Source of the DNA: a virus
Strand: one strand, 5' to 3'
DNA: 18,696 nt
IMG/VR virus record: IMGVR_UViG_3300045988_180339
Coordinates: 1-18,696 of that record
Part shown: in pieces, positions 1 through 18,696 of the stretch
Numbering within the stretch: the first letter of the stretch is position 1
How the letters are laid out: every line of letters begins with the position of its first letter
Notes under the pieces: model-generated
Databases searched by the model: none
What the model was told of the DNA's origin: nothing
Seen by the model: the letters and a program-made list of their open reading frames with translations, nothing else
Translations under genes and position numbers: made by a program

Positions 1-5
1 TAGTA

Positions 6-37
6 AACAATATCCAACTTATTTCCCCCAAATAATA
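6..37 (+). repeat. ITR-internal ~30-bp direct repeat copy 1 (AAcAATATCCAACTTaTTTCcCCCcAAAtAATA)
   Basis: Imperfect direct repeat of 129-158 inside the same ITR (core AATATCCAACTT identical). Possible iteron or origin-protein binding site. Confidence 0.6.
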
Positions 38-128
38 ATACCCACAGTATGACCCCACAAAAACACAACCCACTTTCTTTAACCCACATAAGCACAACAC
101 AAACTAACCACAACAAACTGCACCACAA

Positions 129-158
129 AATAATATCCAACTTTTTCGCCCAAAATAC
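129..158 (+). repeat. ITR-internal direct repeat copy 2 (AAtAATATCCAACTTtTTTCgCCCAAAAtA), abutting the -35 element
   Basis: Matches 6-37 with few mismatches. Ends 1 nt before the -35 hexamer of the ITR promoter, so it could double as an operator. Confidence 0.6.
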
Positions 159-187
159 TAGACATCACTTTACACACCTGATATAGT
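159..187 (+). promoter_or_regulatory. Inward-facing sigma70-like promoter inside left ITR: -35 TAGACA (159-164), 17-nt spacer, extended -10 TGaTATAGT (179-187)
   Basis: Near-consensus hexamers with exact 17-nt spacing and a TGn extended -10. Followed about 60 nt later by SD GGAAGGAG (241-248) and ATG 255-257, the last 3 nt of the ITR. Confidence 0.55.
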
Positions 188-254
188 GGTCACTGTCAGC
201 AAGGCAAGGCACCCGGCGATGGGCTTGGGTGCGCTGTTTGGAAGGAGCAGGATT

Positions 255-320
255 ATGGAAATCAAAGAAGCTGTTATCAAAAGCGCGTTGTATCCGTTTG
301 CACTTCAAGTGCTGGGGTAG
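255..320 (+). CDS. 21-aa leader ORF (MEIKEAVIKSALYPFALQVLG) initiated by the ITR-borne SD+ATG
   Basis: Best SD in the region (GGAAGGAG, 6-nt spacer) sits before ATG 255 and stops at TAG 318-320. Immediately followed by a second SD GAGGAGGA (322-329) plus ATG 336 (7-aa ORF). Could be a leader peptide, or the N-terminus of a frameshifted gene. Confidence 0.3.
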   Translation: MEIKEAVIKSALYPFALQVLG

Positions 321-369
321 TGAGGAGGACATCGAATGCTTCAAGTCTCTTATCGATGACAGTTCCGAC

Positions 370-696
370 ATGGCTGGTTACTGCATATCGTTTAGCGGTA
401 GTCGTGACATTGTTAATATGGATCCGACAGTATACAAATTAGACGGTATGACTATTTTCGAATGGAGAAAAGAGAACCGAGCGTTAGCCGCCAGGGTTCG
501 GGAGCTTGAGAGCAGTTACGATCGCGTGATTGATTACAACCATGCACTTACGGTAAACCTGGTTAGCGCGTTAAATGCAAAACCCGACTATGCCGAGTTG
601 CACGCTTTTATTGCTGATTTTGAGAAGTGTATTCTGGACATTTCCGAAGCTATCAATGGAGCGATTGAGGTGGTGAGAGCACATGAAACCAAATAA
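370..696 (+). CDS. Hypothetical early protein (108 aa from ATG 370; ORF open from GTG 229; alternative ATGs at 418 and 448)
   Basis: Long open frame 229-696 with coding-like codon use but no convincing SD at any in-frame start. Contains the motif AELHAFIADFEK shared with the 858-1067 protein. GC about 45%. Confidence 0.4.
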   Translation: MAGYCISFSGSRDIVNMDPTVYKLDGMTIFEWRKENRALAARVRELESSYDRVIDYNHALTVNLVSALNAKPDYAELHAFIADFEKCILDISEAINGAIEVVRAHETK

Positions 697-853
697 CACC
701 CAATACGATATCGGTTACCAAAACGGATACGATGACGGCTATTCCCGAGGATTCTCCGCAGGCTATAGAAAAGGTGCCGATAAGGCGGAGGAGATAAGCA
801 GGCAAAAATTCCAAGACTACGATAGGCGCTACGAGTACCCAAGATGGAGGTGA
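683..853 (+). CDS. Small Tyr/Gly-rich early protein, 56 aa (MKPNNTQYDIGYQNGYDDGYSRGFSAGYRKG...)
   Basis: ATG 683 preceded by GAGGTGGTGAG. Overlaps the stop of the previous ORF. Not in the ORF track (short). GYQxGY motif shared with the next gene. Confidence 0.5.
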   Translation: MKPNNTQYDIGYQNGYDDGYSRGFSAGYRKGADKAEEISRQKFQDYDRRYEYPRWR

Positions 854-857
854 TAGC

Positions 858-1067
858 ATGCCAACGTTCGACAAGGAGAACTCGATAGCATACGTCCGAT
901 ACATCGAGGAGAACTGCCCGCACGTGGACGTTTTCCGAAAGCAAATCGGCAACAGCGGCGTGTACGTTCTGATAGCCGACGGCAACACGTTGTTCGACAC
1001 TTCCGAGCTGCACGCCTTCGTGGCGGGTTATCAGAAGGGATATATGAAGGGTAAGGCTTATCGGTGA
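858..1067 (+). CDS. Hypothetical early protein, 69 aa
   Basis: SD GGAGGTGA 7 nt upstream of ATG 858. C-terminus SELHAFVAGYQKGYMKGKAYR combines the ELHAF(I/V)A motif of ORF 370-696 and the GYQxGY motif of ORF 683-853. Confidence 0.65.
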   Translation: MPTFDKENSIAYVRYIEENCPHVDVFRKQIGNSGVYVLIADGNTLFDTSELHAFVAGYQKGYMKGKAYR

Positions 1068-1255
1068 AGCTGAAGAAACTGATTCCACTGCTCAAGGATG
1101 ATTTCCTCGTCTGCGATTTAGACGAGGGTCTTACTTGGACAGTTGATAGCCACTTTGCAACCGAGGATAATTCGACGGTTTCAAATCAGCTTGAAAAGAA
1201 AATTATCTCGGTTTCCTCTTTCTATGACCAGGTTTTGGTCAGAGTTAAGTTATAA
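1064..1255 (+). CDS. Hypothetical protein, 63 aa, GTG start, in a low-GC (~42%) island
   Basis: GTGA overlap with the upstream stop. Weak SD (AAGGGTAAGG). Clear composition drop relative to the flanks. Confidence 0.4.
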   Translation: MKLKKLIPLLKDDFLVCDLDEGLTWTVDSHFATEDNSTVSNQLEKKIISVSSFYDQVLVRVKL

Positions 1256-1288
1256 TGTCAAAGTGACGTTTGAAAAGGAGGTGATTAA

Positions 1289-1516
1289 ATGATTCGCCGT
1301 AAAATGACCACCACTATTTGCGATGTGGTAACGCCTGATGGGGAGATGCTCGGCGAGGCGTCCTATTACGGCAAAATCAGCCCTGCAAGGCTCGCCAAGG
1401 TGGCGCGTCGGCTGTACAAGAACCAGCTCGCCACTATCACGAACTACCGAACTGTGCAGGAAACTTACGAGATGGAAGAGGAAGCTTTCATCGCAAACGC
1501 AACCAAAGTAGACTAA
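1289..1516 (+). CDS. Hypothetical early protein, 75 aa (basic N-terminus MIRRKM)
   Basis: Strong SD AAGGAGGTGA 7 nt before ATG 1289. Confidence 0.7.
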   Translation: MIRRKMTTTICDVVTPDGEMLGEASYYGKISPARLAKVARRLYKNQLATITNYRTVQETYEMEEEAFIANATKVD

Positions 1517-1531
1517 GAGAAGGAGCAAACA

Positions 1532-2005
1532 ATGACCGCAGAGTTCTATGAAGAGGAACAGGCCATCGCAACCCAGCAGGCTGCAGCCCAGCTTGCCAAC
1601 GGAAACGGCTTCGCGCAGAAGATCGTGCAGGAAGTGAACGAGCAGGGCTTCTACACCACGCTCGACATCTCCACCATGGCAGGAAAGAAGACGCTCTACA
1701 GCGCGACCAACGCGAGCGTGCTTCTCCGCGATTTCATGGAGACTCCGCTTGCGATTGCGAACATCACGTTCGCCCCGTCGGAAATCAGCGACGAGGACGG
1801 CAACCCGCTCACCACGCTCGGTGTCTTCCTCACCGACGAGAACGGCACCACATACAGCTCAACCTCCACGGGCGTTCTCAAGTCGGCTATGCGCATCCTC
1901 GCCAACTTCGGCGAGCCTACCGATTGGGGCGAGCCGCTCACCGTCGTGTGCAAGGAGACCAACACCAGCAAGGGTCGCCGCTACAAGTTCCTCGACGTGG
2001 AGTAG
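1532..2005 (+). CDS. Acidic 157-aa early protein; candidate SSB or DNA-binding replication accessory protein (by position only)
   Basis: SD GAGAAGGAG before ATG 1532. Sits directly upstream of the terminal protein/DNA polymerase gene pair. Followed by a GC-rich hairpin cluster. No motif recognised. Confidence 0.7.
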   Translation: MTAEFYEEEQAIATQQAAAQLANGNGFAQKIVQEVNEQGFYTTLDISTMAGKKTLYSATNASVLLRDFMETPLAIANITFAPSEISDEDGNPLTTLGVFLTDENGTTYSSTSTGVLKSAMRILANFGEPTDWGEPLTVVCKETNTSKGRRYKFLDVE

Positions 2006-2026
2006 CGCGAACTTGCGTGATATCCT

Positions 2027-2119
2027 GGGAGCGTGCGCTTAGGCCGCGCTCCCTCAAAGGGCGCGCCTTAGGGCGCGCCCTTCGTATCACAGCATAAACA
2101 AAGCCCGCTTGCGCGGGCT
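2027..2119 (+). promoter_or_regulatory. Cluster of three GC-rich hairpins between ORF 1532-2005 and the terminal protein gene (candidate U-tract-less terminator/attenuator or RNA processing site)
   Basis: Hairpin 1 is 2027-2033/2047-2053 (GGGAGCG/CGCTCCC). Hairpin 2 is 2057-2067/2072-2082 (AAGGGCGCGCC-tta-GGCGCGCCCTT, perfect 11 bp). Hairpin 3 is 2102-2108/2113-2119 (AGCCCGC/GCGGGCT), just before SD AAAGGAGCAGG. Confidence 0.45.
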
Positions 2120-2138
2120 GGAAAAAGGAGCAGGCATC

Positions 2139-3353
2139 ATGGCGAGGAAGAGAACGGAACTCGATAAGAAGATATCCCGCGCTCAGAAGAATGCCCGAAA
2201 CAAACTATACCGCATCCGTAAAAAGGGCGCAATCAACAGCGAGGAGTTCGACCCTCGCGTCTCCCAGGCAGAGATTAAGCATATGAACGGCTCGCAGAAG
2301 AAGGCATATCTCAGGAAGCTTGAACTGTTCAATGGCCGTGCGAACAAGGTTATCGTGCAGCCTGGAAACGGGATAGCGATTCCCGAGACCAAGCTCAAGG
2401 CGTACAGGCAGGCGGAGCTAGAGCTAAACGCCGCACGCATCATCCGAAGGGCTGGAATAGAGGAGGCGGTGAAGTCGGCGGCGGTTCTCGACATCTCCAG
2501 GATTCAGAAGACGGTGAACAAGGAGATAGCCAGGCGCGAGCGGGCGGAGAAGCTAGGCAAGCCGTACAAGCCGCTCAAGAAGTCGGTTGAGTCTATGCGC
2601 GGCATGCCCGTGAACTGGAACAAGCTTGACATCGACTACCTGGCTAAAGCTCAGAGCTACTACGACCCCGTGTTCAAGCAGTGGAAGCCGGGGGAGCGGA
2701 ACAAGTTCCAAGACCTCGTGCCAATCTGGATGCGCGAGTCCTTCCCCTCCGTGAAGTCGGTAGAGGAGCAGACCAGGAAGGCGAAGGAGGCAAAGGAGCG
2801 AATAAAGGTCGCCAGGAAGCGCTACCCGCAGTACCGAGAGGCGCTCATCGAGAAGGCCATGTTCTCGGGTTACCCCGAGCTTGCCGAGGCGATACGCGCG
2901 CTCACCTACGCGCAGCTCGATTACCTGCACTACTACACGGATTTCGACGCTTGGGGATCGTTCTTCTCGTCGTCGAAGGGCTATATCGCGGGAAATCAGG
3001 CGCTGTTCGAGGAGCAGCGCGACCAGACGGACGATGCTGCCGCGCAGATGATGGCGGAGATTCTGCGGGCGAGGCGCATAAGGCCCGGGCAGTCTGGAAT
3101 ATCGAACATCACTTACAACAAGGAATGGCGCGGCGAGAGGGGCTTTGCGAAGGCGGGCGGAAATCTCGGAAGCACCGGACTGGACCCCGATATCGTCGAT
3201 ACGATGAGCAGGGCGTCCATATCAGGCTCGCGACTCGGGTTCAGGACGTCCATCTTCGACTACAAGGAGAGCAAGGCGGAATCGGCAAACAGCGAGCGCA
3301 TGCTGCATGAGCTTTCCTACGAGATCGCGCGCCAGATAAGGCACGGGAAATGA
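2139..3353 (+). CDS. Putative terminal protein (TP, 404 aa), translationally coupled to the DNA polymerase
   Basis: SD AAAGGAG precedes ATG 2139 (the upstream ATG 2109 lacks an SD). Very basic N-terminus (MARKRTELDKKISRAQKNARNKLYRIRKKG). Stop overlaps the polymerase start (ATGA at 3350-3353). In phi29/Cp-1-like genomes the TP gene immediately precedes the polymerase. Confidence 0.55.
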   Translation: MARKRTELDKKISRAQKNARNKLYRIRKKGAINSEEFDPRVSQAEIKHMNGSQKKAYLRKLELFNGRANKVIVQPGNGIAIPETKLKAYRQAELELNAARIIRRAGIEEAVKSAAVLDISRIQKTVNKEIARRERAEKLGKPYKPLKKSVESMRGMPVNWNKLDIDYLAKAQSYYDPVFKQWKPGERNKFQDLVPIWMRESFPSVKSVEEQTRKAKEAKERIKVARKRYPQYREALIEKAMFSGYPELAEAIRALTYAQLDYLHYYTDFDAWGSFFSSSKGYIAGNQALFEEQRDQTDDAAAQMMAEILRARRIRPGQSGISNITYNKEWRGERGFAKAGGNLGSTGLDPDIVDTMSRASISGSRLGFRTSIFDYKESKAESANSERMLHELSYEIARQIRHGK

Positions 3354-5041
3354 TAGAGTACGCGAGCGACTTCGAGACCACGACGCAGGCCGATGACTGC
3401 CGCGTTTGGGCCTGGGGGTGCGCAAAAGCGTGCGGTGAGCCAGAACCGACGTTCGAGAGCGGTACCGATATCGATTCGTGGCTTGCGCACGTCAAGTCGA
3501 ACCCAGGCCGATACTGGTTCCACAACCTGGGATTCGACTCCCGCTTCGTCATGTGGCACCTGCTCAACTCAGGGTGCGAATGGGTGGAGAAGAAGCCGGT
3601 GGAAGGCCAGTTCTCAACCGTCATAGACAACATGGGAAAGATATACTCGCTAGAGATAGGCAACGAGGGCGGGAAGCTTGTTCTGGCTGACAGCTTCAAG
3701 AAGATTCCGATGAGCCTCGAGAGCGTCGCCCAGGCGTACGACCTGCCCATGTCGAAGGGCGATTTGGACTACGAGGCCTACCGAGAGGTCGGGCACGTGC
3801 TGACGGACGAGGAGATGGACTACCTGTACCGCGACGTGCTGATACTCGCAAGGGCGATGCACAAGCGACTCGAAGTCGGAACAAAGCTCACCACGGGCGC
3901 AGATTGCCTTGAAACCTACAAGGACATCATAGGCAAGGACCTATGGAACAAGTGGTTCCCCCACCTCAACCCGATACTCGACGGCGAGATTCGCCAGGCA
4001 TACCGAGGCGGATACGTGTACTGCAACCCGCTGCACCAGGGGCAGGTCGTAGGAAAGGGGATAGCGCTGGACGTCAACTCTCTTTACCCGTGGGTCATGA
4101 GAACGGCGCTGCTCCCCTGGGGCATGCCGAAGCGAGGGCGCGGCAAGCCGAAGGAGAGCAAGGATTTCCCGCTTTGGGTCGCGGAGGTGCAGTTCGACGC
4201 GACGTTGAAACCCGGGAAACTTCCCTGCATACAGATGAAGAACAACATGTTCTACCGCGATAGGGAGTACATACGCGAGACGGTAGAGCCTATAGACCTC
4301 TGGGTATCGTCGGTAGACTGGAAGCTCATATGCGACATGTACGAGGTCACCGTGTACGCGTGGGGAGCGCATTACCTGTTCCACGGTGCCAAGGGCATGT
4401 ACAACGATTACGTGGATTATTGGATGGCAGAGAAGATCGCGGCGGGCAAGGAGGGAAACCGCGCGAGGCGGCAGAACTCCAAGCTGTGCCTCAACAACCT
4501 GTACGGCAAGTTCGGTCAGAAGGTGGAGGTGCAGGGCAAGGTTCCCGTGCTCGATGCCGACAAGGTTCTCCACCTGCTGCCAGGCGACAAGGGAGAGCGC
4601 GATCCCGTGTACATCCCAAGCGCGGTGTTCATCACCGCATGGGCGAGGGACAAGACGATACGCACCGCCTGCGAGTTCGGGGACAGGTACCTTTACAGCG
4701 ACACCGACTCCATCAAGGCGCTGGGAACGGACATTCCAGACGATGTGCACGTGGACGATTACGAGCTTGGCGCATGGGCGTTGGAGCAGACGTTCGACAA
4801 GGGCATCTTCCTGCGGGCGAAGACCTACGCCACCTACTCCGACGGGCTTTGCGAGTACATATGCGCGGGAATGCCGAACAGCCTCAAGGAGGTCATGCGC
4901 TTCGATGACTTCAGGGTGGGATTCACCACGCTCGGCAGCGACAACCCCGATTACGCGAACAAGGACAACTGGAAGCTCGTGCCGCAGAACGTGCCCGGCG
5001 GTTGCGTGCTGGTGCCAAGGCCGTTTACAATACACGGATAG
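3350..5041 (+). CDS. Protein-primed family-B DNA polymerase (phi29 gp2-like, 563 aa)
   Basis: Exo I DFETT (aa 7-11), Exo II YWFHNLGFD (56-63), Exo III YLYRDV (158-163), YxGG AYRGGY, motif A DVNSLYP (241-247, identical to phi29), motif B KLCLNNLYGKFG (378-389), motif C YSDTDS (449-454), KxY KTYA (491-494). Size close to phi29 gp2. Confidence 0.95.
   Translation: MIEYASDFETTTQADDCRVWAWGCAKACGEPEPTFESGTDIDSWLAHVKSNPGRYWFHNLGFDSRFVMWHLLNSGCEWVEKKPVEGQFSTVIDNMGKIYSLEIGNEGGKLVLADSFKKIPMSLESVAQAYDLPMSKGDLDYEAYREVGHVLTDEEMDYLYRDVLILARAMHKRLEVGTKLTTGADCLETYKDIIGKDLWNKWFPHLNPILDGEIRQAYRGGYVYCNPLHQGQVVGKGIALDVNSLYPWVMRTALLPWGMPKRGRGKPKESKDFPLWVAEVQFDATLKPGKLPCIQMKNNMFYRDREYIRETVEPIDLWVSSVDWKLICDMYEVTVYAWGAHYLFHGAKGMYNDYVDYWMAEKIAAGKEGNRARRQNSKLCLNNLYGKFGQKVEVQGKVPVLDADKVLHLLPGDKGERDPVYIPSAVFITAWARDKTIRTACEFGDRYLYSDTDSIKALGTDIPDDVHVDDYELGAWALEQTFDKGIFLRAKTYATYSDGLCEYICAGMPNSLKEVMRFDDFRVGFTTLGSDNPDYANKDNWKLVPQNVPGGCVLVPRPFTIHG
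5002..5031 (+). promoter_or_regulatory. Candidate internal promoter for the lysis cassette: TTGCGT-18 nt-TACAAT inside the 3' end of the polymerase gene
   Basis: Hexamers 4/6 and 5/6 to consensus, about 12 nt upstream of SD GGGAAGGGAGGTGA and the holin ATG 5059. Confidence 0.25.
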
Positions 5042-5058
5042 GGAAGGGAGGTGATTCA

Positions 5059-5436
5059 ATGGCAGTTTTTCAAGGTTTGGACTGGTACGCGGTCATCGCG
5101 GCTCTTCTATTCATCCTGTTCGACTTCGCGACGGGGATTGCCAAGGCCGCTTATTTTAAGCAGGTCTCATCGACCGTCATGCGCGAGGGACTCTACCACA
5201 AGTTCGCGGAGATTCTCGTCATCGTGCTGGCAGGCGTAATCGACGTCGCATGCGAGCACCTGGAATTGGGGTTCGACACGCCGATTCTAGCGGTGACATG
5301 CGCCTACATCGTTCTCATGGAGGTTGCAAGCATACTTGAGAACATCGGGGCGATGAACCCCGATCTGGCAAACAGCCCCGTTTTCTCTATTTTCAAGAAG
5401 GAAGGCACAACAAATGGCAAGCATTCGGGGAATTGA
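5059..5436 (+). CDS. Holin (125 aa, three predicted TM segments)
   Basis: Strong SD GGGAAGGGAGGTGA. Hydrophobic stretches WYAVIAALLFILFDFATGIA, FAEILVIVLAGVIDVA and ILAVTCAYIVLMEVASILENIG. The SILEN-type motif and hydrophilic C-tail are typical of a phage_holin_4-like family. Immediately upstream of, and overlapping, the endolysin gene. Confidence 0.7.
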   Translation: MAVFQGLDWYAVIAALLFILFDFATGIAKAAYFKQVSSTVMREGLYHKFAEILVIVLAGVIDVACEHLELGFDTPILAVTCAYIVLMEVASILENIGAMNPDLANSPVFSIFKKEGTTNGKHSGN

Positions 5437-6313
5437 CGTGAGCTCGAACCAGCCCGCGGACATCTGCTCGCTGGTAGATTACGATTTCGCGATTGTGAAG
5501 GCTACGGGGAACCCGCCCGGCTACGCGTGGAACTACAAGAACCCGTACATGGAGCAGCAGGTGGACGATGCGCTCGGAAAGACGGGGTGCGCGGGGCTTT
5601 ACCACTTCACGTTCGGGCGCGCCGCCAAGGAGGAGGCGGACTTCTTCTGCGACACGGTGGCCGATTACGCGGGGCGCGCAATGCTGGTCATCGACTACGA
5701 GGGGCAGGCTATCGACAACGGGCGCGAATGGCTTCGCACGTTCGCGCAGCGCATCAAGTACCGCACGGGCGTCAACCCCGTAGTGTACGCGTCAAGCTCG
5801 GTAATTCGAGACCAGGATTTGGAGTCCTTGGCCGAAGAGGAGGATTTGTCTCTTTGGAGCGCGAACTACTGGCGCGGCTACGATACCGTGTACGGCTACG
5901 ACACGAGCGGGATGAAACAGGATATCCCGTCGAGCGCGCTCTGGCAGTTCACCAGCCAGGGAGTGCTCGAAGGCTACGACGGGTACCTTGATTTGGACTT
6001 GTTCTACGGGGATTACGACACGTGGCAGAAATACTGCGCACCGAGCCAAACGCCCGCAGAACCTGAGGAACCAAGCGACCCGGAAGGAGGAAACATGCTA
6101 ACGGAACATCAAGATAGGCTTCTGGCCGTTATTTACGAACAGGTCACGGGCACATACGACCCTACGGGTCGCGGTATCGCGCTCTGCGACCACGACCACA
6201 TCAAGTGGATTGGAAAGCAGACGGCAGACAACGGCGCTGCAATCGAGGACTTGAAGGCTCGGATGGACTCCATCTCCGACAAGCTGGACGTGCTTCTGTC
6301 AGCCAAGGGCTAG
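5414..6313 (+). CDS. Endolysin: N-terminal GH25 muramidase (Cpl-1-like), Pro/Glu-rich linker, ~90-aa C-terminal domain of unknown type
   Basis: GIDVSSNQ, YHFTFG, EEADFFCDTV, LVIDYEG, LWSANY, LWQFTS, LDLDLFYG match the conserved blocks of pneumococcal phage lysozyme Cpl-1 / GH25. Linker is PSQTPAEPEEPSDPEGG. No choline-binding repeats. Confidence 0.85.
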   Translation: MASIRGIDVSSNQPADICSLVDYDFAIVKATGNPPGYAWNYKNPYMEQQVDDALGKTGCAGLYHFTFGRAAKEEADFFCDTVADYAGRAMLVIDYEGQAIDNGREWLRTFAQRIKYRTGVNPVVYASSSVIRDQDLESLAEEEDLSLWSANYWRGYDTVYGYDTSGMKQDIPSSALWQFTSQGVLEGYDGYLDLDLFYGDYDTWQKYCAPSQTPAEPEEPSDPEGGNMLTEHQDRLLAVIYEQVTGTYDPTGRGIALCDHDHIKWIGKQTADNGAAIEDLKARMDSISDKLDVLLSAKG

Positions 6314-6332
6314 CTTCGAGTCAAGCACTCGG

Positions 6333-6365: not shown

Positions 6366-6394
6366 GCATGCAACCAAATATCCCTCCGGGCTGT

Positions 6395-6810: not shown

Positions 6811-6827
6811 TAGTTTAGGAGGCAAGA

Positions 6828-10772: not shown

Positions 10773-10784
10773 GGAGGTGCAGCT

Positions 10785-12382: not shown

Positions 12383-12988
12383 ATGGCACTTTGGCAAGAC
12401 AAGTGCAACCGCCTCGACTTCGCGTACAGAGGGTACCAGTACCCCGTGCCGCCGTCATGGAAGTACGCGGTGCGCCTCGAAGACCAGATCCAATGGCTGT
12501 TGCAGGCTATCCTCAAAGCGGCGGACGAGGCTGTGTCGGCAGGCGACCTGATGGACTTCAGAAACGAGATGTACGATTTCATCGACCGCGTGGCGGCGGC
12601 GCTGGAAGAGGAAATCGATGAGTATTCGCAGCGGCGCGCATGGTGCTGCTCGCCAGTGGACGGAGCATTGCGCTCGATGGGCGTGGTCGCCCGCCAAGTC
12701 TACGATGCGGCGCGTCCGCTGGCGATGAGGTACAGGGAGTTCGACGAAATCGGAATGACGTACGACGCGCTCAAGGCAGAGGGCAGGAAGTACAACGACG
12801 TTGACTTCCATAGCAACCTGTACTGGGGCAACGGCAACCTGTTGGCGAACACCACGCCCGCCGAGGCTATTTCAGACCCCGTCGCGGGGGAGCCTGGAGC
12901 GTGGAACCCGACAGGCGGCGGTTACTCGAAGGGAACCACCTACTCGCAGATAAACGAGAACGGGTTCATGTACCGGAAGGAGGCGTGA
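12383..12988 (+). CDS. Structural protein, 201 aa (tail/collar-associated, unknown)
   Basis: Strong SD GGAAGGAGG before ATG 12383. Lies between the connector and fibre genes. Confidence 0.6.
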   Translation: MALWQDKCNRLDFAYRGYQYPVPPSWKYAVRLEDQIQWLLQAILKAADEAVSAGDLMDFRNEMYDFIDRVAAALEEEIDEYSQRRAWCCSPVDGALRSMGVVARQVYDAARPLAMRYREFDEIGMTYDALKAEGRKYNDVDFHSNLYWGNGNLLANTTPAEAISDPVAGEPGAWNPTGGGYSKGTTYSQINENGFMYRKEA

Positions 12989-12989
12989 C

Positions 12990-13967
12990 ATGGCACTTCC
13001 TACTTTCGAGTACGACAGGCGAATCGACATCGTGGACGCGCTGAACGAGCTTTCCACCGCAGCCGATGCGGCCATCGAAGCGGGAGGCGGCTCTAGCAGC
13101 TACGTCCTCCCCGTTGCCGCTGACGCCGTGCTGGGCGGCGTAAAAGGCCAGCGCGTGGAAGAGAAGGACGGCAACGGCAGGATCGTGCAGGTAACGCCCG
13201 ACGGAACCGCCTTCATCGACGCAGCCGACGCGCTGAACCCAGGCGTCGTGCGATCCAAGGAAGGCAATTCGTTCGCCGACACCGATGCAAACATCGCCGT
13301 CAACGCGCACGGCTACATGAAGTGCGACGCTCCCAAGGCCTACGTCGATGCGCAGGTTGCGGGCGTGGAGGCGCACCTGGAAGCGTTCGAGGCGGAGGCC
13401 GTCACGCAGGCCGAGGGGGCGAACGCCATCCAAGCGACTATCGCGCCTACGGAGAGCGCCGGCTCGAAGCTGACAGTCTCGCTCAAGTACGGCACAGGGC
13501 TTGCCGTGCAGAACGGAACCCTCGTGGCAACGGGAGGCGGAGAGGTTACGCAAAAAGTCGTTTCCTTAGCCGCTAATGAAACATTGCCGTTAGGCAATTT
13601 AACGATGCAGGTTGAGCGCAATGGAATTTACTTCGTCACTGTAAGCCAACAGCAAAGATTCGACGCACTGCTGATAAACGCAGTGTTTGCCGTATCATCA
13701 GAATTAGCTGGCCCCGGGTTTAACTTTACATGCCCTAACAGTAACAAAGCTACAAAATGGGTTGTCAACAGCATAGAAGCACCTGATTTAATTAGAACGC
13801 AATTCAAGGTGCCAGTTTTAGGGGGATACGTTCAAAGAGACGTAGAATCGTATACTAATACATACGCCGTCTGCAATGCTTCCGAAACATCGTTATTTAT
13901 CTCTAGTTTCTCAAGCAGCAAAAAATCCTTTTATATGTATCCTCTCACTGTGGTCAGATATCATTAA
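12990..13967 (+). CDS. Receptor-binding tail fibre / appendage protein 1 (325 aa) with a low-GC C-terminal head domain
   Basis: SD GGAAGGAGG. N-terminus (LPTFEYDRRIDIVDALNELSTAADAAIEAGGGSSSYVLPVAADAVLGGVKG) is paralogous to the N-terminus of the next gene and carries a phage-fibre-type repeat (GGVKG...VTPDG). Nucleotides about 13555-13967 drop to ~41% GC. Confidence 0.65.
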   Translation: MALPTFEYDRRIDIVDALNELSTAADAAIEAGGGSSSYVLPVAADAVLGGVKGQRVEEKDGNGRIVQVTPDGTAFIDAADALNPGVVRSKEGNSFADTDANIAVNAHGYMKCDAPKAYVDAQVAGVEAHLEAFEAEAVTQAEGANAIQATIAPTESAGSKLTVSLKYGTGLAVQNGTLVATGGGEVTQKVVSLAANETLPLGNLTMQVERNGIYFVTVSQQQRFDALLINAVFAVSSELAGPGFNFTCPNSNKATKWVVNSIEAPDLIRTQFKVPVLGGYVQRDVESYTNTYAVCNASETSLFISSFSSSKKSFYMYPLTVVRYH

Positions 13968-13977
13968 GGAGTAAACC

Positions 13978-14850
13978 ATGCCAACCAACAACTACAGCCT
14001 TCCCACCATCTCGGGCGAAGAGGTAATCGACATCGTAGGGGACATGAACGCGCTCGCGAACGCGACCGACGCCGCCTTGAAGAAGGTGGAGCAGGGCGGG
14101 CTCGACCAGTACGTTCTCCCCACGGCGACGCGCACCGTAAAGGGCGGCGTCATCGTCGGAGACGGGCTTTCCATCACCCCCGGCGGCGTCCTGTCCGCCG
14201 TCTCGCAGGGCGGGGGCGGCACGGCAACCATGCCCGTAGCAACGTCCGTCACCCTCGGCGGCGTCAAAATCGGCGCTGGAATCACCGTAACGCCCGACGG
14301 AACCATCTCGGTGCCCGCGTCATCGAGCATCGAGGACGGCGCGGTTACGTCCTCGAAGCTTGCGAGCGGAGCGGTGACGGCCGACAAGCTGAGCGCCAGC
14401 GCGGTTACCACGGTCAAAATCGACAACGGCGCGGTGACCGAGGGCAAGATCGCGAACGGGGCCGTCACGTCCTCCAAGCTCTCTAGCGACGTATCGGAGG
14501 ACATCAGCAGCGCCAAGTCGCAGGCGGCGAGCGCTTACCAAGGATGGAGCGGGTCGCCGACACGCGCAGGCTCCTTCTCCTCAGGGCAGGGTACTATCGA
14601 ATGCTGGGGCAAAGTCGTTGTAGTCCATTGCGAGCAAATCACCGTTGCAAGCGCCTCTAAAACTCTTGTCGGAACTGTTTCAGGCGCATATAGGCCTATA
14701 AGCGAAACTACGGGCGTCGTTGGCGCTATCGGCGGTTCTGGAACTGTCAGCGCCTTCATTAAAGTGGAGACGGGCGGCAACATCTACATCAACCCCGGCT
14801 CTGCAGCGGGGCTTAACTGGACTGGCACGCTCGTGTACCTCATCAGCTAA
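13978..14850 (+). CDS. Receptor-binding tail fibre / appendage protein 2 (290 aa) with fibre repeats and a 5x tandem ~11-aa repeat
   Basis: SD AAGGAG. N-terminus YSLPTISGEEVIDIVGDMNALANATDAALKKVEQGGLDQYVLPTATRTVKGGV parallels protein 1. Repeats GGVIVGDGLSITPGGVLS and GGVKIGAGITVTPDGTISV. Then (G)AVTxxK(L/I)xxx five times. The C-terminal ~110 aa are unrelated to protein 1 and lower in GC. Confidence 0.65.
   Translation: MPTNNYSLPTISGEEVIDIVGDMNALANATDAALKKVEQGGLDQYVLPTATRTVKGGVIVGDGLSITPGGVLSAVSQGGGGTATMPVATSVTLGGVKIGAGITVTPDGTISVPASSSIEDGAVTSSKLASGAVTADKLSASAVTTVKIDNGAVTEGKIANGAVTSSKLSSDVSEDISSAKSQAASAYQGWSGSPTRAGSFSSGQGTIECWGKVVVVHCEQITVASASKTLVGTVSGAYRPISETTGVVGAIGGSGTVSAFIKVETGGNIYINPGSAAGLNWTGTLVYLIS
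14335..14490 (+). repeat. Five tandem 30-33-bp coding repeats (GAVTSSKLAS / GAVTADKLSAS / AVTTVKIDNG / AVTEGKIANG / AVTSSKLSSD)
   Basis: Seen directly in the nucleotide sequence (gcggttacg.../gcggtgacg.../gcggttacc.../gcggtgacc.../gccgtcacg...). The period is consistent with a fibrous shaft. Confidence 0.8.
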
Positions 14851-14853
14851 GCC

Positions 14854-16155
14854 ATGCCTACGCGGGACAACACGATCATGTACGCCATGTACGTGATCGG
14901 CAAGGTCGAGTCCGACTGGGATTGGGCGGCCGTCTACCGAGCCGACCCCATAACCATCGGTATGATGCAGGAGTACGGGCAGAACGCGAGCGACCTGCTC
15001 AAGCTATGCCGCGACGGCGATGCAGTGGGGTGGGCGTCCTTCGCGGCGTCCGCCCCCGACCTCGTGGCCGACGTGGACGCGCACGGTGACAGCTGGGACT
15101 GGTGGACTTCGCGCTACATCACCGATTCGGAGGCTTCCGCGTGGCAGGCCATGGCCGCGCGTCCCGAGAACCACAAGATCCAGCAGGACAAGTGGAAGGA
15201 CGAGGCGGCGCGATACATCGATACGCTGACTGGTTGGGGTTGGAGCGAGGAGCGGCCGCATACGCTCGTCTACGCCATGTGCATATACCACCAGTCGCCG
15301 CAGGCGTGCGGGCAGGTGACGAGGAGCTGCAGCGGCTCAGCGTCACTGGACAACCTTCACGCCACGACCCTTAACTCGTGGATTGGGAAGTACGCCAACC
15401 GCTACAACACCGCCTACGACATGCTCAAGGATTGGGACGGGGATAGCGCGCCGCCCGACTTCGGGCAGGTGGTGGACAGCCCGAGCGGCGGCAACTCGGG
15501 CACCGTATCGCAGCCTTCGAACGACATCGACCGCGTTGAGATGCGCAACGGGCAGATCGTCGTATGGGGGCTGTCCTCGTACCCGAACGGGCTTATCTGC
15601 ACCTACGCGGCTCCCAACATCTGGATTCCTTGGAGCCGCAAGGGGGGCACCGACAACCCAGGCGGCACGACGGGCGGGGGAACGGCGCAGGGAGCAGAGG
15701 CGGCGGAGAAGGCCGCCGAGCTTATGCGAAGCTGGGAGAAACGGTTCTCATACTCGCAGGGAGCGGGCAGGCTGTCCCCCGAGAGCAGCGGCTACACCGA
15801 CTGCAGCGGCGTCATCTGGTACGCCTACCAGCAGGCGGCGTCCCTGGACGTCGGCACCTGGACGGGGGAGCAGGCGGAGAAGGGGCGGCAGATAGCGTGG
15901 GGGAACAACGGCATGCCATACAATGCGGAGACGCTCTACGGCATGCGCACGGGCGACCTCGTGCTAATCGACTGGGACACCGTCACGTCCCCTGGGAACA
16001 CGAGCTACGACCATGTAGAGATGTACATGGGAGACAACAAGCTGATGGGGCATGGCGGAGGTGCGGCACATCCAGAGGGGCCGTACTGGAAGGACGATAT
16101 GCTGGCCTACATGCGCAACGTCGCGACTTGGGAAATCAGGCGTTACGCCGAGTAA
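14854..16155 (+). CDS. Virion-associated peptidoglycan hydrolase (433 aa): N-terminal lytic-transglycosylase-like domain plus C-terminal NlpC/P60 endopeptidase
   Basis: VESDW...(14 aa)...IGMMQEYG fits SLT motifs I (ES) and II (GLMQ). The C-terminus has YTDCSGVIWYAY (catalytic Cys), GDLVLIDW and HVEMYMG (His), as in NlpC/P60. Occupies the position of phi29 gp13, a tail lysin. Confidence 0.7.
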   Translation: MPTRDNTIMYAMYVIGKVESDWDWAAVYRADPITIGMMQEYGQNASDLLKLCRDGDAVGWASFAASAPDLVADVDAHGDSWDWWTSRYITDSEASAWQAMAARPENHKIQQDKWKDEAARYIDTLTGWGWSEERPHTLVYAMCIYHQSPQACGQVTRSCSGSASLDNLHATTLNSWIGKYANRYNTAYDMLKDWDGDSAPPDFGQVVDSPSGGNSGTVSQPSNDIDRVEMRNGQIVVWGLSSYPNGLICTYAAPNIWIPWSRKGGTDNPGGTTGGGTAQGAEAAEKAAELMRSWEKRFSYSQGAGRLSPESSGYTDCSGVIWYAYQQAASLDVGTWTGEQAEKGRQIAWGNNGMPYNAETLYGMRTGDLVLIDWDTVTSPGNTSYDHVEMYMGDNKLMGHGGGAAHPEGPYWKDDMLAYMRNVATWEIRRYAE

Positions 16156-16186
16156 AAAGCGTCCCTCGGAAATGAAGGTTATCAAC

Positions 16187-17260
16187 ATGCAGAATGTTCT
16201 CGAAAAAGATAATATATCACCCCGACGGTACTACCCCGTAGCGAAAACATGCAGCTACGGCGCTCCTCTGACGCTCATCATCTCGGCTCGAAGCTACGGA
16301 AAGACCTTCGGTTTCGTACTCAGAGGCCTAAAACGGTGGGCGAAAACGGGCGCTCAGTTCGCTTGGGTGCGGCGCTACGACGACGAGACCGCGAAGACGG
16401 CCCCGACGCTGCTCGATGATGTCCTTTCTCACGGTTATATGGACGGATATGAGTTCCGCTACGTCGGCCGCCGATGGGAAGGCCGAAAGAGCGGCGACGA
16501 CTCGAGACCTTGGGCTACGGTCTGCCACTGCCTGACGTTGAGCATGGGACAGAGCTATAAAGGCGTTGCGTTCCCGCTAGTCGATACGGTAATCTTCGAC
16601 GAGTTCATCCGAGAGGTGAAAACGCCGCCCGGATACCTTCGGGAAGAGGTGGGCGTTTTCCTCAACCTGCTTAAATCGGTGTTCCGCGACCGCCCGCGCG
16701 TGCACGCCTTCGCGCTCGCGAACGCCTGCGACCTTACCGCTCCGCTGCTCGCGTTCGCTGGAGTCCGCAGCGAATCGCAGATAGCGACGCCTTCGGGTTA
16801 TAGCTGGCACAACAATAAAAGCGTCCTCGTGCACTTCGCGCACGATGCGGAGTTTATGGCCCAAGAGGCTGAAACGGTAGTCGGTAGGCTCGTGCAGGGC
16901 ACGCCGTACGCGGGCGTCATGCTCGGCAACCAGTTCGCGAACGGAGGCGACAACCTTATCGGGTCAAAGCCCGCGCGAGCTCGCTACCGATACGGGTTCG
17001 TTTTCGAATCGGAGCGCTTCGGCGTTTGGAGCGACGACGTTACTGGCGTGTTATATGTCAACGGTAAGATTCCAAGCGGTGCGGGTATGCTGTTCACCCT
17101 GCAAGCGGGTGATATGTCCGTGGATGTCGTCATGGTAGAGCGAGCGGCCCCGTTCGCGAAGGCTATCATGAGGCTGTTCGGATTCGGCCGCGTACTGTTC
17201 GACTCGGCGGCAACACGTGAGCGCTTTATAAAGATGCTAGGCTTGTGCGGCCTGCGATAG
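16187..17260 (+). CDS. DNA packaging ATPase (phi29 gp16-like); alternative start ATG 16172
   Basis: PLTLIISARSYGKTFGFVLRG...AQFAWVRRYDDE matches gp16 RILNFVIGARGIGKSYAMKV...EQFIYVRRYKPE (Walker A). TVIFDEFIRE is identical to the gp16 Walker B TIVFDEFIRE. Confidence 0.9.
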   Translation: MQNVLEKDNISPRRYYPVAKTCSYGAPLTLIISARSYGKTFGFVLRGLKRWAKTGAQFAWVRRYDDETAKTAPTLLDDVLSHGYMDGYEFRYVGRRWEGRKSGDDSRPWATVCHCLTLSMGQSYKGVAFPLVDTVIFDEFIREVKTPPGYLREEVGVFLNLLKSVFRDRPRVHAFALANACDLTAPLLAFAGVRSESQIATPSGYSWHNNKSVLVHFAHDAEFMAQEAETVVGRLVQGTPYAGVMLGNQFANGGDNLIGSKPARARYRYGFVFESERFGVWSDDVTGVLYVNGKIPSGAGMLFTLQAGDMSVDVVMVERAAPFAKAIMRLFGFGRVLFDSAATRERFIKMLGLCGLR

Positions 17261-17278
17261 TGTGCAGCCGCTGCACAT

Positions 17279-17309
17279 AAAGAAACCCCCGCGTTTGCGG
17301 GGTTTCTTT
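17279..17309. terminator. Bidirectional rho-independent terminator between convergent transcription units
   Basis: AAAGAAACCCCCGCG-TTT-GCGGGGTTTCTTT: GC stem of about 13 bp with a tetraloop, flanked by an A-tract on one side and a T-tract on the other. It overlaps the stop of the minus-strand gene 17308-17799 and follows the ATPase stop (17260). Confidence 0.75.
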
Positions 17310-17799
17310 AGTATATGCCTTGCTTCGGCATGACAATGAAGCGGCCTACCTCCTCATGATTCGAGGTCATTAAACGGCCTCTCATGATCTCAGCGGGAGC
17401 GCTGTCGATTATGACGTCCAAGCCGCCCGCCTTTGCTACTTTGAGCACTTTATCAAGGAGCTTAGGGTCGTAGCTGTTGCCGCGCGCCTGCGAAGGCTCG
17501 TCGATTAGGTGCCGCCAGTTGCTAGGAGTTACAGGCTCGAACTCCAAGGGTGTATCAAAGGCTATAGAGTCTTTAGCAAGAACCCGCGCATCATCGCCGC
17601 CGAAGGTGCACGGATGGGCCTCCGTGGTCTTTAAATCAACCTCAATGGCCATATAGGTATCAGTGGCGATTATCGCATGGCGGGCAGGACTGTACCAGGG
17701 GCGTTCGAGACCTTTATGCGTGCCCGTTCCTTTGACCTTAAGCGCGCAAGCGCAGAGAGCTTTATAAACCTTACCCGGTATGAACTCCTCATAACACAT
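17308..17799 (-). CDS. Right-end early protein, 163 aa, Cys/His-rich N-terminus (MCYEEFIPGKVYKALCACALKVKGTGTHKG...)
   Basis: SD GAGAGGAG 5 nt before ATG at 17799-17797 (the track ORF extends to 17844 without an SD). Possible metal-binding cluster C3..C15/C17..H25..C66. Function unknown. Confidence 0.6.
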   Translation of the reverse strand: MCYEEFIPGKVYKALCACALKVKGTGTHKGLERPWYSPARHAIIATDTYMAIEVDLKTTEAHPCTFGGDDARVLAKDSIAFDTPLEFEPVTPSNWRHLIDEPSQARGNSYDPKLLDKVLKVAKAGGLDVIIDSAPAEIMRGRLMTSNHEEVGRFIVMPKQGIY

Positions 17800-17800
17800 T

Positions 17801-17935
17801 TTAACTCCTCTCGTACAAAGCGAAGACAGCGATGAACTGTGCAATTCCCACGATCCCCCAAGGTTCTGGAGCGAAGAACATCGCGAAGGCTGCCAGAATC
17901 ATCGAGGCAGCAAACGCGACATCTGCGGCGGTCAT
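17801..17935 (-). CDS. Small hydrophobic peptide, 44 aa (MTAADVAFAASMILAAFAMFFAPEPWGIVGIAQFIAVFALYERS), two predicted TM helices
   Basis: ATGA overlap with the stop of the upstream gene 17932-18186. Its last codons (GAG AGG AGT TAA) form the SD of the next gene. Not in the ORF track because it is short. Confidence 0.45.
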   Translation of the reverse strand: MTAADVAFAASMILAAFAMFFAPEPWGIVGIAQFIAVFALYERS

Positions 17936-18186
17936 GCGTAGGCCTCGCAGTCGTAAGCTTCAAGGTCGAACGAATTGGCAAACTTGGCAGCATCGCGGTA
18001 GAAGTCCACCGCCTTATCAACCTCGTAGCCGAATTCAAAATCTGCAAACATATATGGTTTCTCGACAATGACCCAGTATGTCCACTTGTCGAAGACGTAT
18101 TTAATCCTCTGCAGTTCGACGCGATACGTAACAGTTGAATATTCAAAACCGTGACGCTCAGTCAACGCGATAGTTTCTTTCTCCAT
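17932..18186 (-). CDS. Right-end early protein, 84 aa, aromatic/acidic-rich
   Basis: SD GGGAGG 7 nt before ATG at 18186-18184. The longer track ORF to 18252 lacks an SD and overlaps the upstream gene. Confidence 0.6.
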   Translation of the reverse strand: MEKETIALTERHGFEYSTVTYRVELQRIKYVFDKWTYWVIVEKPYMFADFEFGYEVDKAVDFYRDAAKFANSFDLEAYDCEAYA

Positions 18187-18187
18187 T

Positions 18188-18442
18188 TTAGTCCTCCCAT
18201 TTGATCGCGTTTGCCTGGTCAAGGATAAAAAAGCAATCCATGAAGCTTTCAAGCTGATAAACGCACTCGCGAGGAGAACCGCACGCTAAAACCTTCAAGG
18301 GAACCCACTGCCCACGCTCGAAGCGCTCAAGGTATACGTTATGGCCGATTCCTCCGCGATCATGAACGCGAACATTAAACTGCTTCATATAGTCATTAAC
18401 GTAGTCGATTTTTCCTTCCAAAGTTTTGACGGTGTAACGCAT
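18188..18442 (-). CDS. First right-end early protein, 84 aa, start codon is the last triplet of the ITR
   Basis: SD GGAAGGAG (inside the ITR) with a 6-nt spacer before ATG at 18442-18440, then unique sequence (MRYTVKTLEGKIDYVNDYMKQF...). The track ORF start at 18511 lies in the ITR and is rejected. Confidence 0.65.
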   Translation of the reverse strand: MRYTVKTLEGKIDYVNDYMKQFNVRVHDRGGIGHNVYLERFERGQWVPLKVLACGSPRECVYQLESFMDCFFILDQANAIKWED

Positions 18443-18696
18443 AATCCTGCTCCTTCCAAACAGCGCACCCAAGCCCATCGCCGGGTGCCTTGCCTTGCTG
18501 ACAGTGACCACTATATCAGGTGTGTAAAGTGATGTCTAGTATTTTGGGCGAAAAAGTTGGATATTATTTTGTGGTGCAGTTTGTTGTGGTTAGTTTGTGT
18601 TGTGCTTATGTGGGTTAAAGAAAGTGGGTTGTGTTTTTGTGGGGTCATACTGTGGGTATTATTATTTGGGGGAAATAAGTTGGATATTGTTTACTA
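18440..18696. repeat. Right inverted terminal repeat (ITR), 257 bp
   Basis: Reverse complement of 1-257. The window therefore spans a whole linear genome of phi29/Cp-1 type (Cp-1 is known to have a long ITR of more than 200 bp). Confidence 0.95.
18510..18538 (-). promoter_or_regulatory. Mirror copy of the ITR promoter driving the leftward early operon from the right end
   Basis: Same sequence on the minus strand (-35 at 18533-18538, -10 at 18510-18515). The SD and ATG at 18442-18440 also lie in the ITR. Confidence 0.55.

Follow-up and report, generated by a model that had tools for sequence, protein, structure and literature searches.

Among the phi29-like protein-primed podophages, whose genomes range from ~12 to 30 kb, Bacillus phage phi29 (Salasmaviridae) has inverted terminal repeats (ITRs) of 6 bp and a GC content of 40%. 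Streptococcus phage Cp-1 is a phi29-like phage with long ITRs of 236 bp. The short gp16 packaging ATPase of phi29 requires a packaging RNA (pRNA) of 117 + 13 + 44 nt to dock on the connector (PMC5066667); the pRNA gene lies at the left genome end (PMC11476376), and reviews restrict pRNA to phi29 and its relatives among the Bacillus phages (PMC5066667, PMC11476376). INPHARED includes phi29-like phages of Curtobacterium, Arthrobacter, Glutamicibacter, Microbacterium, Bifidobacterium and Actinomyces, and a 2024 review reports GC contents of up to 65.9% in the group, with Eggerthella among the hosts (PMC11476376).

The window analysed here, an 18,696-nt stretch of viral DNA, very likely represents a virulent phi29-like podophage of the human gut that has not been cultured, and spans its linear genome in full or almost in full. 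In architecture it comes closest to Actinomyces phage Av-1 and to the picoviruses of Curtobacterium and Arthrobacter. Phages of this type are already known and, judged from its sequence, the genome adds a further member whose nearest isolates stand at 30-41% protein identity. What is unexpected in it is a two-domain RNA at 6640-6806 (+) that has not been described before. An earlier note, made from the DNA letters, had proposed a phi29-like protein-primed podophage with the full phi29-type gene set and no integrase. Pfam and PHROGs searches confirmed this identification through the hallmark families, with matches to phi29-like homologues for polymerase, connector, ATPase, capsid and gp9, and retrieved no integrase for any ORF of the genome. 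The gene set itself was upheld: most families were recognized, while the scaffold is assigned from position and size, the 'appendages' are seen only as fibre-like proteins and the terminal protein (TP) has no library match. SD-like motifs precede 23 of the 26 gene starts. The GC-rich core of ~62% given in that note was not recovered, the GC content being 57.9% overall and 59.8% over positions 1501-17300. The two-domain RNA is absent from that note.

The replication genes follow the phi29 order of p6-like gene, SSB, TP and polymerase; in phi29 itself, the early genes are on the opposite strand. The first early gene (255-696, +) is split by a 1-nt frameshift near 318 into a 21-codon ORF and a following frame at 229-696. 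It is unbroken (146-151 aa) in two relatives, L001 and L004, and the frameshift, which lies outside the coverage of an independent ENA scaffold, may be an assembly error beside the ITR. A candidate p6-like dsDNA-binding protein of 75 aa (1289-1516, +; phrog_6370 'dsDNA binding protein', E = 4.7e-5) is encoded directly upstream of the single-stranded DNA-binding protein (SSB; 1532-2005, +; Phi29_Phage_SSB 4e-7, phrog_6243 2.5e-14), as is gene 6 in phi29. The stop codon of the 404-aa TP gene (2139-3353, +) overlaps the start of the protein-primed family B DNA polymerase gene (3350-5041, +; DNA_pol_B_2 1e-59). The alignment of the polymerase with phi29 DNAP (1XHX, E = 8e-104) runs from one end to the other and is continuous through the TPR1 and TPR2 regions. 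Searches of Pfam, PHROG, PDB and Foldseek retrieved nothing for the TP. When its family was compared by profile with hhalign, it matched the protein annotated as TP in Curtobacterium phage Prophecy (93%, E = 2.5e-7), an annotation that is itself bioinformatic; homologues of the TP occur only on contigs of 14-19.6 kb. A lysis cassette follows, with a holin (5059-5436, +; Phage_holin_4_1 4e-18) and a GH25 endolysin with a C-terminal domain (5414-6313, +; Glyco_hydro_25 8.5e-21). A small, fast-evolving gene of 99 aa without assigned function (6299-6598, -) has a strong SD, diverges from the late operon and is kept as a protein in L001-L004 at 32-84%.

The late operon opens with a 101-aa scaffold-position protein (6828-7133, +), for which Pfam and PHROGs gave no family match; the equivalent gene of Curtobacterium phage Ayka is annotated as a scaffolding protein. 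It continues on the same strand with the major capsid protein (7134-8597; Phi29_MCP 4e-82), a gp9-like tail knob (8598-10772; phi29_gp9_C 3.5e-13, phrog_2248 1.6e-84), the gp10-like portal or upper collar connector (10785-11822; Phage_connector 8e-42), a lower collar or adaptor protein (11819-12382; phrog_3225 3e-12, phrog_5472) and a 201-aa tail-module protein without Pfam or PHROGs matches (12383-12988). Next come two fibre-like proteins, encoded at 12990-13967 and at 13978-14850 (PHROG tail fibre families, best 1e-11); an N-terminal motif read from the translations is common to both, and the C-terminal part of the first is a low-GC (0.44), non-conserved module. A tail-associated NlpC/P60 lysin (14854-16155; NLPC_P60 3e-8, phrog_1015) and a 362-aa gp16-like packaging ATPase (16172-17260; Podovirus_Gp16 1.7e-39) complete the operon. 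The ATPase is of the gp16 type without a nuclease domain, and would package the TP-DNA through the gp10 connector. A bidirectional terminator hairpin (17287-17302) separates this operon from a convergent right-end early operon of four small genes (163, 44, 84 and 84 aa; 17308-18442, -) without assigned function.

Altogether, the homologues shared with phi29 are the polymerase, capsid, gp9, gp10, gp16 and SSB. With Av-1 (Dybvigvirus), a phage of an actinobacterial host, the genome has in common the order of small ORFs, SSB, TP, polymerase, scaffold-like gene, capsid, tail knob, connector, adaptor, fibres and ATPase, the reverse-strand small ORFs at the right end, a long TP (361 aa in Av-1) and a polymerase of 40% identity. 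However, the lysis cassette of Av-1 follows the ATPase, whereas here it sits between the polymerase and the scaffold-position gene; the two TPs have no detectable similarity, and the GC content of Av-1 is 49.5%. The nearest cultured phages are those of Curtobacterium, Arthrobacter and Microbacterium (for example Ayka, Prophecy and Anjali), with identities of 39-41% for the polymerase, 31-37% for the capsid and 30-34% for the ATPase; no nucleotide similarity to this group was found. Its TP family is homologous and ITRs are present (55 nt in Prophecy), but its hosts are from soil and plants, its TP is shorter (262 aa), its lysins are M15 and M23 peptidases, and in Prophecy every gene is on one strand. 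Cp-1 is a distant relative with a low-GC host, absent from the best matches.

The two-domain RNA measures 115 + 7 + 41 nt (domain I, linker and domain II). Its 5' domain (6640-6762, +) consists of an outer helix leading to a three-way junction with two arms: arm A ends in an apical hairpin and has an internal loop on its 5' side (6684-6690), and arm B forms a hairpin whose loop lies at 6719-6724. The 3' domain (6766-6806, +) folds into a stable hairpin resembling a terminator, after which come a U-rich tract and the SD of gene 6828. An extended -10 promoter element, TGCCACAAT (6629-6637, +), lies 6-7 nt upstream of the RNA; it was read from the sequence, a consensus scan having given no flag, and is kept in relatives as TGCGATAAT or TGCCACAAT. 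No Rfam family corresponds to the RNA at 6640-6806. The 3' domain has a z-score of -5.75, shows covariation and is present in all subclades examined, while the 5' domain alone gives no thermodynamic signal (z = +0.14). In the alignment of the RNA, 98.8% of cells are paired, compared with 36-50% in slid controls; all six helices contain compensatory pairs, and none of 500 shuffles reached the observed values. Full-length matches occur at the syntenic site in low-GC relatives, and the same topology emerged when a distant subgroup was folded independently and de novo. In the Curtobacterium phages, the two-domain layout recurs at the equivalent position ahead of the scaffolding gene, where 16 of 52 pairs are compensatory. 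Covariation support comes from three lineages, these cultured phages included.

The reading of this RNA that we favour, at just short of an even chance, is that of a true pRNA. The comparison with phi29 pRNA (RF00044) supports such an assignment in several respects: two domains of similar size, a 5'/3' helix, a three-way junction, a terminal hairpin domain and, beside a short hairpin arm, a long one that ends in an apical hairpin and has an internal loop on its 5' side. Moreover, the loops that correspond to the CE-type internal loop and the D-type hairpin loop are Watson-Crick complementary here, and their pairing covaries. In five gut subclades the internal loop/hairpin loop pairs are CAGC/GCUG, GCC/GGC, GGC/GCC, UGCA/UGCA and GACAA/UUGUC. 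Complementarity is thus kept in all five despite the differing sequences, with cognate pairs maximal in the cross matrix and a summed P of 1.5e-4, in a post hoc test that was designed once the pattern had been seen and that covers only about five independent subclades. Intermolecular and intramolecular pairing of these loops look the same at the level of sequence. As this lineage's counterpart of phi29 pRNA, the RNA may form a ring, held together by loop-loop pairing, that docks the ATPase on the connector. The differences from phi29 are also clear. The RNA has no sequence similarity to phi29 pRNA, and the Rfam pRNA covariance model found no match at E <= 1 on the window or at E <= 10 on 6590-6830. 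In addition, the RNA lies mid-genome, directly upstream of the late operon, whereas the phi29 gene is near the left end and transcribed early.

Somewhat lower, though still substantial, is the probability that we assign to the RNA being a cis-acting 5' leader of the late operon rather than a packaging RNA. Its 3' hairpin would then act as an intrinsic terminator, and the three-way-junction domain, its two loops paired within the molecule as a pseudoknot, would control read-through or the translation of scaffold and capsid, in the manner of processive antitermination RNAs or of a riboswitch-like element. The position of the RNA speaks for such a role: in every subclade examined, the hairpin and U-rich tract are 8-20 nt upstream of the SD of the scaffold-position gene, a gap with no room for another promoter, and therefore the late genes must be transcribed through the hairpin. 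The promoter-like element immediately 5' of the RNA and the failure of the Rfam pRNA model fit the leader role too, as does Av-1, whose structured leader in the same slot, upstream of ORF8, combines a terminator-like hairpin with no more than a simple hairpin on the 5' side and has no three-way junction. A terminator-like hairpin right before the late genes suits a cis-regulatory leader equally well; however, phi29 pRNA too ends in a terminator hairpin, its Domain II. Against a leader stand the defining features of phi29 pRNA that this RNA reproduces in the order of its arms, the dimensions of its two domains and the covarying complementarity of internal loop and hairpin loop, as well as the ATPase of this phage, the same short form that depends on pRNA for docking in phi29 (PMC5066667). 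The two functions are not mutually exclusive. The promoter at ~6629 is predicted to start the RNA and, when the hairpin is read through, also the transcription of the late operon, whose genes extend from the scaffold-position gene as far as the ATPase.

The host is probably a bacterium of the Eggerthellaceae, an assignment drawn from one gene, the lysin. Along its full length, the lysin (5414-6313) shares 69% identity with one encoded by a prophage in a chromosome of Ellagibacter (Eggerthellaceae, Actinomycetota); among the full-length relatives found on bacterial contigs it is the closest, and a chromosomal gene flanking that prophage is identical to Ellagibacter NirJ2. This lends indirect support to the high-GC Gram-positive host suggested in the earlier note. 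GC contents are 0.65 in the chromosome flank, 0.61 in the prophage and 0.58 in the phage. Lysins belong to a class of genes that phages exchange, and a scan of species genomes gave only weak matches, to an Eggerthellaceae MAG (55%) and a Rikenellaceae MAG (59%). A high-GC member of the Bacillota, for example of the Oscillospiraceae or Ruminococcaceae, is an unlikely though not negligible host. Holins of the Phage_holin_4_1 family and GH25 lysins, both present here, are common in phages of Firmicutes; lower-GC relatives with the same TP family have a GC content of 42-46%, and Hungatella phage CH17P1 is among the polymerase matches. Clostridia have also been suggested as hosts of many gut MAG picoviruses (PMC11476376). 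These points are countered by the Ellagibacter prophage, which supplies the best full-length relatives of the lysin from outside the phage clade, by Eggerthellaceae being the sole named genome match of any specificity, by the nearest cultured relatives in polymerase, capsid and ATPase, which are all actinobacterial phages, and by a GC3 of 0.8-0.9, in agreement with the Ellagibacter flank. The further claim that a high-GC host is unusual for this group, on the premise that its known members infect low-GC Firmicutes, is wrong, because actinobacterial phi29-like phages and GC contents of up to 65.9% had already been published.

A repeat search confirmed that the left ITR (1-257, +) and the right ITR (18440-18696, -) are exact reverse complements over 257 nt, a match that cannot arise by chance. 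Such repeats are indeed far longer than those of phi29, but their length is not special, the ends of Av-1 being 94% identical over 200 nt. That the window is essentially a whole linear genome is likewise upheld. One database copy, an ENA record whose name carries SAMEA2338670 and LIJU14-1, equals window positions 321-18696 with 0 mismatches and has the same right-hand base (18696); another copy is titled 'human gut metagenome'. Independent assemblies terminate at the identical base or at most 2 nt apart, and contigs of relatives cluster at, and reach no further than, 18-19.6 kb. The ITR of L001, also perfect and 235 nt long, starts 2 nt further out than the window at both ends; the exact termini are uncertain because the window lacks these two terminal nucleotides. 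An assembly artefact (a fold-back, chimeric join or duplicated end of a molecule that is circularly permuted or has short or no ITRs) is very improbable: the left 320 nt are missing from the ENA scaffold and the frameshift near 318 falls just within that segment, but collapse of one of the two copies of an inverted repeat is common in assembly, hence the shorter scaffold, and the ITRs of relatives differ by about 10%, yet are identical within each genome, as in L001, while a 79-nt ITR is found on the L003 contig, ITRs also occur in the Av-1 and Curtobacterium isolates, and the promoter, SD and ATG in the ITR look functional and fit genes at both ends.

Within the left ITR, the outer 160 nt are depleted in G and contain four copies of a ~33-nt repeat, and the inner part provides a promoter directed into the genome (159-187) together with an SD and an ATG (255); the promoter, SD and ATG (18442) of the right ITR serve the 84-aa gene at 18188-18442. 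These identical promoters would drive early genes from each end. Protein-primed replication as in phi29 is predicted, with the TP covalently capping both 5' ends and priming the polymerase at each ITR; the p6-like protein and SSB may assist, possibly via ~28-nt periodic repeats in the G-poor outer ITR.

As a phage genome, the window extends a group that is already broad by one uncultured lineage, which probably infects Eggerthellaceae. This is useful for the annotation of gut viromes and unsurprising; the RNA outweighs it in importance. All phi29-like phages have the short gp16 ATPase that in phi29 is unable to dock on the connector without pRNA. If the RNA described here is a true pRNA, RNA-dependent packaging motors would not be confined to the Bacillus relatives of phi29; they would extend to picoviruses of actinobacterial hosts in both gut and soil, the cultured Curtobacterium phages included, and the pRNA gene would in these phages be joined to the start of the late operon. 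Since a covariation-supported, pRNA-like RNA occurs in distant lineages, some of them, such as the Curtobacterium phages, culturable, a pRNA ancestry of the whole group becomes directly testable.

As the earlier note had claimed, the outermost 257 nt at either end of the window are exact reverse complements, which we confirmed by a repeat search. The related IMG/VR contig L001 (~92% nucleotide identity) has a perfect inverted terminal repeat (ITR) of its own, 235 nt long, and both of its ends consist of TG plus the first bases of the window (termini TGTAGTAAAC at both ends of L001, TAGTAAAC at window 1-8). An ENA scaffold whose record name contains SAMEA2338670 equals window 321-18696 with 0 mismatches and shares the right-hand terminal base, a more distant relative (77% identity) carries an ITR of 79 nt, and the relatives' contigs reach a maximum size of 18-19.6 kb. 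The ENA match, these repeats and ends, and the contig sizes argue for a complete genome, perhaps short of ~2 terminal nt. The GTAGTA reiteration at the termini could, speculatively, reflect sliding-back or jumping-back in protein-primed initiation. The ITRs diverge by ~10% between the window and L001, yet the arms are identical inside each genome, a sign of concerted evolution as expected for functional replication origins. The outer ITR (1-160 and 18537-18696) is G-poor, with 6 G per 160 nt on the 5'-3' strand, and a ~33-nt A/C-rich repeat occurs there in four copies (5-37, 33-65, 61-93 and 128-160, three of them at 28-nt spacing); these could be binding sites for a p6-like DNA-binding protein or for the complex of terminal protein (TP) and polymerase. 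Each ITR further carries an inward expression signal (159-257 and 18440-18538), TAGACA-17-TATAGT with an extended TG, then a Shine-Dalgarno (SD) motif and an ATG. Because the promoter lies in the ITR, the same promoter fires inward at either end, and the first genes at the two ends have promoter, RBS and ATG in common. The first gene (255-696) has a 1-nt frameshift near 318, so that the ATG inside the ITR opens an ORF of 21 codons and the remainder lies in frame 229-696. It is intact in L001 and in another related contig, L004 (146-151-aa ORF), and since the ENA scaffold begins at 321, with the frameshift site just outside, the frameshift may be an assembly error at the edge of the ITR.

The gene map (26 ORFs) combines the ORF list with SD motifs and the independent ENA gene call. 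An SD-like motif precedes 23 of the 26 starts, GGAGG or AAGGAG being frequent. The phi29-type gene set proposed earlier is borne out by Pfam and PHROGs matches: a 75-aa p6-like dsDNA-binding protein (1289-1516; PHROG 'dsDNA binding protein', E = 4.7e-5) directly before the SSB (1532-2005; Phi29_Phage_SSB), the DNA polymerase (3350-5041; DNA_pol_B_2, with an end-to-end alignment to the phi29 polymerase structure 1XHX, E = 8e-104), holin (5059-5436), GH25 lysin (5414-6313), capsid protein (7134-8597; Phi29_MCP), gp9 tail knob (8598-10772), gp10 connector (10785-11822), lower collar (11819-12382), fibre-like proteins (12990-13967 and 13978-14850), tail lysin (14854-16155; NlpC/P60) and packaging ATPase (16172-17260; Podovirus_Gp16). 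The p6-SSB-TP-polymerase order is also that of phi29. Pfam/PHROGs, tRNA and Rfam scans of the window revealed neither an integrase nor a tRNA nor any Rfam family; sub-threshold Rfam matches to Leu_leader and CRISPR-DR28 were set aside as simple hairpins or terminators. The CRISPR-DR28 match falls on a GC-rich hairpin (AAAGCCCGCTTGCGCGGGCT, 2099-2119) between the SSB and TP genes, probably a plain stem-loop, for which there is a terminator-like call on the minus strand.

GC content is 57.9% over the whole window and 59.8% in 1501-17300, with AT-richer ends (0.44-0.49); GC3 is 0.8-0.9 in replication and late genes and ~0.5 in end-proximal early genes. The C-terminal part of the fibre-like gene 12990-13967 forms a low-GC island (13091-13963; 0.44 vs ~0.60), which the GC profile places at 13501-14000. 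At the nucleotide level the island is unmatched in L001 and partly matched in the related contigs L003 and L004, while the N-terminal ~50 aa of the product resemble the N-terminus of the next gene's product. The island looks like an exchanged receptor-binding module. The gp9 knob gene has a variable segment (9191-9878), where nucleotide-level alignment with the relatives L001 and L002 (92% identity) is interrupted.

The 404-aa ORF at 2139-3353 (+), whose stop overlaps the polymerase start, is accepted as the predicted TP on the basis of position and profile homology. It is without a library match in Pfam and PHROGs, and tblastn against phages matched nothing; the family profile gave a full-length match to the annotated TP of Curtobacterium phage Prophecy (hhalign 93%, E = 2.5e-7), within which a Y-T-x-F motif is conserved. 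The homologues are 269-449 aa long and were found only on contigs of at most 19.6 kb. No similarity to the Av-1 TP emerged from either pairwise or profile comparison. When the PDB was searched, with the profile at the sequence level and with an AF2 model (pLDDT 73) in Foldseek, the only matches were generic helical ones, which do not establish the phi29 TP as a structural homologue.

No nucleotide match in INPHARED was found by megablast with the entire window. At the protein level the window comes closest to isolated phages of Curtobacterium, Arthrobacter, Glutamicibacter and Microbacterium and to Av-1, at 30-41% identity; Av-1 has the same gene order as the window, its two ends share 94% identity across 200 nt, and the Prophecy ITR is 55 nt long. 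The earlier view that high GC is out of the ordinary in this group is outdated: a 2024 review of 2115 phi29-related sequences gives a GC range of 22.8%-65.9%, and Actinomyces, Arthrobacter, Bifidobacterium, Curtobacterium and Eggerthella are among the hosts it names (PMC11476376). The earlier identification as a phi29-like phage is correct; this kind of phage is already known, and the window is an additional lineage. Many gut picovirus contigs of 14-16 kb (L029-L058, IMG/VR 3300045988) have the TP family (26-33% identity) and a structured RNA in common with the window; their GC of 41-50% indicates that the clade covers hosts of widely differing GC content.

The suggestion of a high-GC Gram-positive host is supported indirectly, by an Ellagibacter prophage lysin and compatible GC and GC3. 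Beyond the phage clade, the closest full-length relative of the window lysin (69% identity, C-terminal domain included) is a gene of a siphovirus prophage on a 175-kb contig whose GC and GC3 are compatible with those of the window. A chromosomal gene flanking the prophage is identical in sequence to NirJ2 of Ellagibacter (Eggerthellaceae, Actinomycetota), and genes near it cluster at 90% identity with proteins of Ellagibacter isourolithinifaciens and of Coriobacteriia. When species genomes were scanned with the lysin profile, the matches were all weak: 55% in an Eggerthellaceae MAG and 59% in one of Rikenellaceae. The host would seem to be a member of the Eggerthellaceae, a reasonably probable assignment.

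The structured RNA lies at 6640-6806 (+), in a gap of 229 nt between the gene 6299-6598 (-) and the scaffold-position gene (6828-7133, +). About 115 nt of this gap are nearly invariant in genomes just 77% identical overall, and the few changes are apparently compensatory. For the subclade that includes the window, the fold obtained with RNAalifold and a covariance model has two domains: at 6640-6762 a 5' domain in which an outer helix opens into a three-way junction with two arms (A and B), and at 6766-6806 a separate 3' hairpin, terminator-like and immediately before the scaffold-position gene. Over six distinct sequences, 98.8% of cells are paired vs 36-50% in slid controls; compensatory pairs occur in 6/6 helices, and the observed values were reached by 0/500 shuffles. 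That the RNA is on the + strand follows from conserved G-U pairs. The thermodynamic signal is absent from the 5' domain alone (z = +0.14), and no Rfam family was found for 6640-6806. A minus-strand ORF overlapping the RNA (6586-6825) was rejected as non-coding, as relatives show 1-3-nt indels there.

With default filters the covariance model missed the low-GC relatives; with filters off it detected syntenic full-length copies in them. Sequence searches then brought the total to 32 copies, 29 of them distinct; of the 36 genomes in the clade defined by the TP, 32 have a copy, among them those at L027 6150-6274, L029 6978-7098, L030 5499-5620, L039 5567-5689 and L041 5036-5157. Chance 16-mers from exact-motif IMG/VR scans (L017, L018, L019, L021 and L022) were rejected, the L022 match being inside a terminase CDS. 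The most distant subgroup, folded de novo from its own MAFFT alignment, shows the same topology with its own covariation, and Curtobacterium phages have this two-domain arrangement in the same slot (Prophecy 3985-4178) with 16 of 52 pairs compensatory. The RNA is therefore backed by covariation in three lineages. The 5' internal loop of arm A is complementary to the hairpin loop of arm B in 5/5 gut subclades tested, with different sequences (post hoc test, summed P = 1.5e-4, cognate pairs being maximal); on visual inspection, UUGCA and UUGCAA, the loops in Curtobacterium phages, are complementary as well.

The prohead (packaging) RNA of phi29, pRNA, comprises a 117-nt Domain I, a 13-nt linker and a 44-nt Domain II, with kissing CE and D loops (PMC5066667). 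The window RNA parallels it in dimensions (115 + 7 + 41 nt), architecture and loop complementarity, but differs in genomic location, and the Rfam pRNA model matched neither the window nor the RNA region. By analogy, the RNA may be a counterpart of pRNA, a serious possibility. It might, somewhat less probably, be a late-operon leader or antiterminator: in all subclades examined, a U-rich tract and then the next gene's SD come after the 3' hairpin. The pRNA-counterpart and leader readings are compatible, not exclusive. The gene 6299-6598, divergent from the RNA/late-operon promoter, is small and fast-evolving but conserved as a protein (84% identity in L001; L003 and L004 align at the N-terminal third only, 32-42%); it has no family match and could encode a transcription regulator.

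In Av-1, the feature annotated as 'packaging RNA' (16295-16402) has no structure signal (z = +0.53), whereas an unannotated gap upstream of ORF8 (4471-4611) is strongly structured (z = -4.1), with a terminator-like hairpin before the SD; a covariance-model match at 15466-15583, within lysA, was disregarded. Reviews describe pRNA as unique to Bacillus phi29-likes (PMC5066667, PMC11476376); the Ayka paper mentions no pRNA-like RNA, and a targeted search of the literature turned up no further one. It is this RNA, rather than the genome itself, that merits follow-up.
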